Of a stretch of 9,434 nucleotides of DNA, positions 4,687 to 4,711 are shown in pieces (the stretch's first letter is position 1; every line of letters begins with the position of its first letter). The DNA lies in the NCBI RefSeq assembly GCF_003334255.1, contig NZ_QOWU01000088.1, one strand, 5' to 3'. A program made the translations under genes and the position numbers. This stretch comes from Escherichia coli. GTDB taxonomy: Bacteria > Pseudomonadota > Gammaproteobacteria > Enterobacterales > Enterobacteriaceae. The notes under the pieces are model-generated. The model was not told the DNA's origin and searched no databases. It saw only the letters and a list, made by a program, of their open reading frames with translations.

Positions 4687-4711
4687 CCAGGCCGGATGTG
4701 ATCCGGCCTGG
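4687..4711. other. Perfect 11-bp stem inverted repeat (ccaggccggat-gtg-atccggcctgg), REP-like or terminator-like hairpin downstream of yodC
   Basis: Seen directly. Lies 17 bp downstream of the yodC stop, in the yodC / dgcQ intergenic region. The GCCGGATG core resembles REP-type palindromes. No clear U-tract. Confidence 0.4.

Follow-up and report, generated by a model that had tools for sequence, protein, structure and literature searches.

The window analyzed here is a 9,434-nt stretch of DNA from Escherichia coli, to which all positions refer unless another record is named. Its segment 4400-5000 is E. coli sequence and is 100% identical to that of strain FORC_069. According to the ORF list and the RefSeq annotation of identical DNA, the minus strand carries, in order, yedI (5906-4989), yodC (4728-4910), a hairpin (4686-4712) and dgcQ (2863-4557). 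The yodC gene encodes a 60-aa protein and ends with a TGA stop codon at 4728-4730, and dgcQ begins with a GTG codon at 4555-4557. The hairpin occupies part of the 170-nt intergenic region between these two genes, with the base of its stem 15 nt past the yodC stop codon and the GTG start of dgcQ 128 nt beyond it. The original prediction, which placed a perfect hairpin just downstream of yodC and before dgcQ, was correct in this respect.

The downstream gene is a pseudogene in this strain. An in-frame stop occurs at codon 313 of dgcQ, between ..ELALLA and AMEHD.. (about 3619-3621, minus strand), and in FORC_069, the identical strain, RefSeq gives the gene pseudogene status ("internal stop"). An intact dgcQ of 564 aa is present in K-12 and in the majority of other strains. 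Because dgcQ is a pseudogene here, insulating it from upstream transcription, one of the two functions originally proposed for the hairpin, would be of no value in this strain. A sigma-70 consensus scan of the minus strand between the hairpin and dgcQ found no promoter site, and no mapped transcription start was found for the gene. A motif of the form TTATGCCAG(A/G)AT is located roughly 30-40 nt upstream of the dgcQ start, where the window reads TTATGCCAGAAT (4587-4598, minus strand), and it is kept from Salmonella and Citrobacter to E. coli. The motif resembles an extended -10 element (TGn + CAGAAT) and is a candidate dgcQ promoter element that the consensus scan missed. Literature searches returned only unrelated papers for yodC, and nothing for yedQ together with yodC. 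The locus itself can be lost or rearranged: in E. coli KMi029 (L003, 2289-2986), a copy of IS1A adjoins yedI in the usual place of yodC and dgcQ, with ybcL and ybcM next to it; the locus has been deleted or rearranged in KMi029.

Direct inspection of the sequence showed that 4687-4711 reads ccaggccggat-gtg-atccggcctgg, so that the 11-bp perfect stem previously reported is present. A4686 and T4712 add one further pair, and the complete hairpin (4686-4712, minus strand) consists of a perfect 12-bp stem with a 3-nt loop. In yodC-sense RNA it reads ACCAGGCCGGAU-CAC-AUCCGGCCUGGU, with a calculated folding energy of -24.3 kcal/mol; the commoner allele, with a 14-bp stem, reaches -27.9 kcal/mol. When the whole 9434-nt window was shuffled 1000 times with preservation of dinucleotides and loops of 3-8 nt were allowed, a perfect hairpin of at least 11 bp was obtained in 13 of the 1000 shuffles and one of at least 12 bp in six. 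A 12-bp hairpin is unlikely to be a product of chance. Only two other perfect hairpins of at least 10 bp occur in the window. One (1137-1162) lies 7 nt past the rcsA ORF (507-1130), and the other (1768-1792) forms the 3′ stem-loop of DsrA, an sRNA (Rfam RF00014, 1766-1852, minus strand, 102.5 bits). DsrA was the only match when the whole window was searched against Rfam at the gathering threshold. A search of 4300-5100 at E<=10 gave two sub-threshold chance matches only, and assigned the hairpin to no Rfam family.

The hairpin had also been described as REP-like. REPs of E. coli are imperfect palindromes of 30-40 nt with a conserved GTAG, or CTAC on the other strand, located 5′ of the foot (Ton-Hoang et al., 2012; PMC3333891). 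The yodC hairpin is extragenic and lies at the 3′ end of a gene, as expected of a REP, but its other present features do not correspond. The palindrome is 27 nt long and its REP-homologous core, GCCGGAT..ATCCGGC, spans 17 nt; all 12 pairs of the stem are perfect, uninterrupted by any bulge or mismatch. In place of GTAG, CCAG precedes GCCGGAT on either strand (CTGG after ATCCGGC), a match at two of four bases, and the full-length Y REPs found at the yodC site (see below) likewise lack a canonical GTAG. REPs are multi-copy, whereas the exact 30-mer containing the hairpin (4684-4713) occurs once per genome. A blastn search (word size 11, E<=1) for other copies returned the yodC locus only, on both strands since the sequence is a palindrome, and no further GCCGGAT-N1-9-ATCCGGC was found in 62 kb of K-12. 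Nor does the window contain a complete BIME arrangement; it holds one cut-down Y unit, a linker and the 3′ half only of a Z2 unit. Local alignment of the hairpin to the Y consensus scored 18, vs. a mean shuffle maximum of 20.9, which is no better than shuffled sequence. Comparison with the consensus alone would not have revealed a REP origin. The RefSeq annotation of MG1655 (NC_000913.3) shows no REP between dgcQ and yodC, but is uninformative on this point, as the record has no REP features even at the well-known BIME at 5565-5669.

Evidence of ancestry came from orthologous loci. A megablast search with the 601-nt segment 4400-5000 returned one class of E. coli genomes in which the match was split in two and the locus was 67 nt longer. 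In E. coli KFu019, alignment with the window and with K-12 placed a 35-nt palindrome, GACCGGATGCGACGTGAGCGCCACATCCGGTCGGG, at the position of the hairpin, adjoining a complete GCCTGATGCGACGCTATCGCGTCTTATCATGCCTAC; this allele can be written GACCGGATG-CGACGTGAGCGCC-ACATCCGGTC, plus a full Z2 REP at the same site. Species-representative genomes were also scanned with YodC, yielding 80 loci. In each of the six non-coli Escherichia representatives (E. albertii, E. whittamii, Escherichia sp. MOD1-EC7003, Escherichia sp. E1V33 and two divergent species-level genomes labeled "E. coli"), yodC is directly followed by a Y-type REP, then a linker and then an inverted Z2-type REP, and two of the six have two such units. 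The repeats at the Escherichia yodC site match both the classic K-12 BIME at 5565-5669 and the published REP consensus, GCCGGATGCGGCGTGAACGCCTTATCCGGCCTAC (PMC12306157), and the full Y REPs fit the pattern GCCGGAT-N10-24-ATCCGGC in the loci examined (L007-L010, L012) and in the K-12 controls.

Aligned with these loci by MAFFT, the window allele in transcript sense equals a Y REP from which 13 central nt are missing as a single gap. The remainder of the BIME can be followed on the minus strand. A remnant of the linker, GTGCCAATGCCTGCAATGAATGA (4663-4685, transcript sense), can be aligned to GTGCCAGCGTCTGCATGGAATG, the linker present in E. whittamii, E69, KFu019 and others. It is followed by the 3′ half of an inverted Z2-type REP, TAGTCGCGTCTTATCATGCCACC (4640-4662, transcript sense), the 5′ half of which, GCCTGATGCGACGC, is deleted. 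The Z2 half agrees with the K-12 Z2 REP (NC_000913.3 5565-5600) at 15 of 16 bases and exceeds shuffled sequences in local alignment, if only marginally (score of 27 vs. a shuffle maximum of 24), and a full Z2 REP occupies the same position in KFu019 and other Escherichia. The 13-nt loss can be explained by a single deletion combined with a G-to-A change, or by a symmetric pair of deletions, of 8 and 5 nt. Deletion between direct repeats was considered as a source of the loss, but the microhomology amounts to just 1 nt (T). The outer five pairs of the stem (ACCAG/CUGGU; 4686-4690/4708-4712) are confined to E. coli and Escherichia sp. MOD1-EC7003; in the other Escherichia compared (among L007-L010, L012), the 3′ flank is unpaired and reads CAGTT or CTGTT. 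The restriction of these pairs to E. coli and MOD1-EC7003 indicates that the palindrome grew outward in the E. coli lineage besides shrinking inside.

Taken against a Y-type REP within a BIME (Bachellier/Gilson nomenclature; PMC3333891), the hairpin shares its position, its ancestry, the outer arms GCCGGAT/ATCCGGC(CT), the extragenic location at a gene's 3′ end and the linker and partial inverted Z2 REP that follow. It differs in lacking the central 13 nt, which make up the loop and the inner stem with its mismatch, in being perfect, 27 nt long and single-copy with CCAG for GTAG, and in the outer-stem extension ACCAG/CTGGT of E. coli and Escherichia sp. MOD1-EC7003. Judging from these alignments, descent of the hairpin from a Y-type REP is very probable. 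"REP-like" therefore describes the ancestry of the element, with 22% of E. coli genomes and six other Escherichia lineages retaining a full-length Y REP here, but not its present features. The element, which the original prediction had proposed to look for in relatives, is there at full length. On the alignments, the hairpin is accurately labeled a REP relic, and not a working REP.

Outside Escherichia, a different structure occupies the site. In 59 of 74 Enterobacteriaceae species representatives outside Escherichia (L011, L013, L017, L018, L020 and 54 others), a conserved intrinsic terminator, ..CGCCCGG-loop-CCGGGCG-TTTT, is located in the first 90 nt past the yodC stop codon. The terminator of Salmonella, Citrobacter, Enterobacter and Kosakonia resembles the E. 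coli element in its place relative to the yodC stop codon and dgcQ and in being a GC-rich hairpin. In contrast to the E. coli element it has a T-run, and its arms (..CGCCCGG-loop-CCGGGCG..) are not homologous to those of a REP. The locus has changed further in the Citrobacter freundii complex (L025, L026, L030, L031, L035, L044), where a dsrA-like sequence, ..AACGAATTTTCAAGTGCTTCTTGCATAAGCAAG..ATCCCGACCC..GGGCCGGGATTTTTTT, is located about 100-230 nt past yodC in place of dgcQ, and the dgcQ-yedP segment is apparently missing. The order of events was probably a terminator shared by the family, then a BIME in its place in Escherichia, and finally erosion of the BIME in most E. coli. The ancestral Escherichia would have acquired a BIME with a Y-type REP past yodC, in place of the intrinsic terminator, and the majority E. 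coli allele would have arisen as the Y REP lost 13 central bases and the Z2 REP its 5′ half, leaving a short, perfect, GC-rich palindrome.

The two forms of the locus coexist within E. coli. Among 5426 complete genomes, the 601-nt query located the locus in 5365. The short hairpin allele, as in the window, was present in 4123 of the 5426 (76%), and the full Y REP allele, with a complete Y-linker-Z2 arrangement, in 1216 (22%). Counting BLAST matches of the 30-mer only where at least 28 of its 30 bases were exact, the exact perfect-stem hairpin was found in 3193 of the 5426 genomes. In most sampled strains, a G at window position 4713 extends the stem to 14 bp. The K-12-type variant (373 genomes) has a U.G wobble at the second pair of the 12-bp stem, in the yodC-sense reading only; on the other strand the same change gives a C.A mismatch. 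In a further 53 genomes the pair is compensated to U-A. Among the remaining short alleles, roughly 500, are some in which an apical A-to-T change creates a U.U mismatch (such alleles make up about 12% of the short ones) and, rarely, some with an A.C mismatch; these variants indicate that the stem is not strictly protected. Two of the 5385 places matching 4400-5000 were on plasmids and not on chromosomes, and some genomes have two copies of the locus.

Covariation was scored in 12 distinct alleles, which were hand-picked and are closely related. Changes on both sides were seen in 3 of 12 outer-stem pairs, and 95.8% of cells were paired, vs. at most 46.5% in slid controls. Comparison of these alleles is suggestive of stem maintenance, although hairpin-templated (quasipalindrome) DNA mutation could give the same pattern, and conservation within one species carries little weight.

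Previous studies provide a framework for what such a structure might do. In Rho-terminated mRNAs of E. coli, the steady-state 3′ end is set by a stable stem-loop without a U-tract, which shields the message from PNPase and RNase II; rut sites occur just downstream of such stem-loops (Dar and Sorek, 2018; PMC6061677). The yodC hairpin is a stem-loop of this sort, located downstream of a gene and with a folding energy of -24.3 to -27.9 kcal/mol. It is likewise GC-rich, devoid of a U-tract and near a stop codon, and the 60 nt that follow it show a mild C excess (C/G ratio of 1.2-1.4). The class includes the classical REP stabilizers (Newbury et al., 1987, as cited in PMC6061677). For the yodC hairpin, a 3′ end just past the stem, Rho dependence and trimming by exonucleases are putative traits. 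A second precedent is REP325, between the tandem genes yjdM and yjdN, to which a recent preprint ascribes a dual effect, with stabilization of the mRNA upstream and attenuation, in part via Rho, of the gene downstream (bioRxiv 10.64898/2026.03.23.713779). The two roles originally proposed for the yodC hairpin, transcript stabilization and insulation of dgcQ, are documented for REPs and for stem-loops without a U-tract at other loci, and are reasonable suggestions here. The arrangement of two tandem genes on the same strand is shared, with yodC upstream and dgcQ downstream in our case. REP325 differs as a multi-unit array of canonical REPs, vs. one cut-down unit at yodC, and the same preprint associates more canonical REPs with a stronger upstream expression bias. 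A Rho-dependent, bicyclomycin-sensitive region has been reported inside dgcQ at 2027287(-) (Adams, 2021; PMC7815308).

In light of these precedents, we consider it rather probable that the hairpin is a decayed Y REP acting as a passive 3′ stem-loop on the yodC message. Transcribed as part of the yedI-yodC mRNA, it would fold into a very stable stem-loop with no U-tract. RNA polymerase would pass the hairpin and stop diffusely beyond it, probably with the help of Rho, after which PNPase and RNase II would trim the transcript back to the stem-loop, leaving it to cap and protect the 3′ end of yodC. The hairpin may also partly attenuate read-through into dgcQ. At the DNA level, the element is expected neither to move nor to recombine, having neither the stem mismatch nor the GTAG, both of which TnpA_REP requires; an engineered perfect palindrome was neither bound nor cleaved by the protein (PMC3333891). 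We infer transcription through the site, a barrier to exonucleases, participation of Rho and any effect on dgcQ from the structure and the published parallels. The RNA role taken by itself, in which the hairpin would passively hold back exonucleases and act as a weak attenuator on yedI-yodC transcripts, is offered tentatively, as a possibility that falls just short of probable. The curated K-12 Term-seq data contain no RNA 3′ end in 2,026,000-2,029,999 under any of three conditions (LB at OD 0.4 and 2.0, M63; Adams, 2021; PMC7815308), and hence none at the hairpin. This result weighs weakly against the original suggestion that the hairpin stabilizes the yedI-yodC transcript or insulates dgcQ; low expression could also explain the missing end.

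The main rival is that the hairpin is a neutral relic of BIME deletions with no selectable effect on the expression of yodC or dgcQ, its perfection being due to hairpin-templated mutation and common descent. This explanation would account for the erosion of both REPs at the site, for the coexistence of long and short alleles in 22% and 76% of genomes, and for the commonness of variants that weaken the stem. The Term-seq result in K-12 agrees with it, as does the statement, in the Fig. 4 legend of the preprint cited above, that terminal REPs have no general effect on half-life (bioRxiv 10.64898/2026.03.23.713779). On the other hand, a stem-loop of -24 to -28 kcal/mol in a 3′ UTR is physically expected to impede PNPase and RNase II (PMC6061677), 3 of the 12 pairs covary, and the series from C-G through U.G to U-A fits pairing at the level of RNA. 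We hold the neutral explanation to be somewhat unlikely.

It is also conceivable that the hairpin down-regulates translation of yodC, in that a ribosome stalled at the stop codon would lead to mRNA cleavage, trans-translation and less YodC. A REP less than 16 nt past a stop codon is described as down-regulating translation (Liang et al., 2015, as cited in PMC12306157), and the spacer here is within that distance, measuring 15 nt in the window vs. 13 nt in the commoner allele with a 14-bp stem. However, the spacing is at the very edge of the published limit, and the rule was established on full REPs. We regard such an effect on yodC as quite improbable.

An intrinsic, Rho-independent terminator of the yedI-yodC operon would be in keeping with a GC-rich hairpin located where Salmonella and Citrobacter have a canonical one. 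Yet no U-tract follows the stem: the next bases are GUGCCAAUGCC in yodC sense and CUUAAUGAUACC on the other strand. A consensus scan for terminator-like sites in 4300-5100 returned none, and the K-12 Term-seq data, as noted, place no 3′ end at the hairpin. With no T-run on either strand and an empty terminator scan, we rejected this explanation, which is very unlikely indeed. A REP/BIME function at the DNA level, as a site for TnpA_REP, DNA gyrase, IHF or Pol I, can hardly be entertained, despite the origin of the hairpin in a BIME, a kind of element to which such proteins bind, given that the GTAG and stem mismatch needed by TnpA_REP are missing (PMC3333891), half of the partner Z2 REP is gone and the sequence is single-copy; the companion notion of a chance palindrome is just as hard to credit, being ruled out by the shuffles and by orthology.

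The hairpin belongs to a well-known kind of repeat in an ordinary state of decay, with little import past annotation. It nevertheless illustrates that a REP relic can be recognized through orthologous loci although the short perfect palindrome fails formal REP sequence criteria. The analysis also documents that the BIME upstream of the cellulose-synthesis regulator dgcQ is polymorphic, the long form being carried by 22% and the short form by 76% of the complete E. coli genomes. Should yodC stability or read-through into dgcQ depend on the allele, this would be another case of REP turnover tuning expression among strains, an idea that has already been published. A bolder proposal, which we consider improbable, is that the REP has been "domesticated": deletion together with the E. 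coli-specific outer extension would have produced a perfect stem beyond recognition by TnpA_REP that still serves, perhaps better than before, as an RNA 3′ cap and attenuator, and that was favored and so rose to 76%. Were that the case, the long/short polymorphism would represent a natural expression variant of yodC and of dgcQ, a c-di-GMP cyclase gene.
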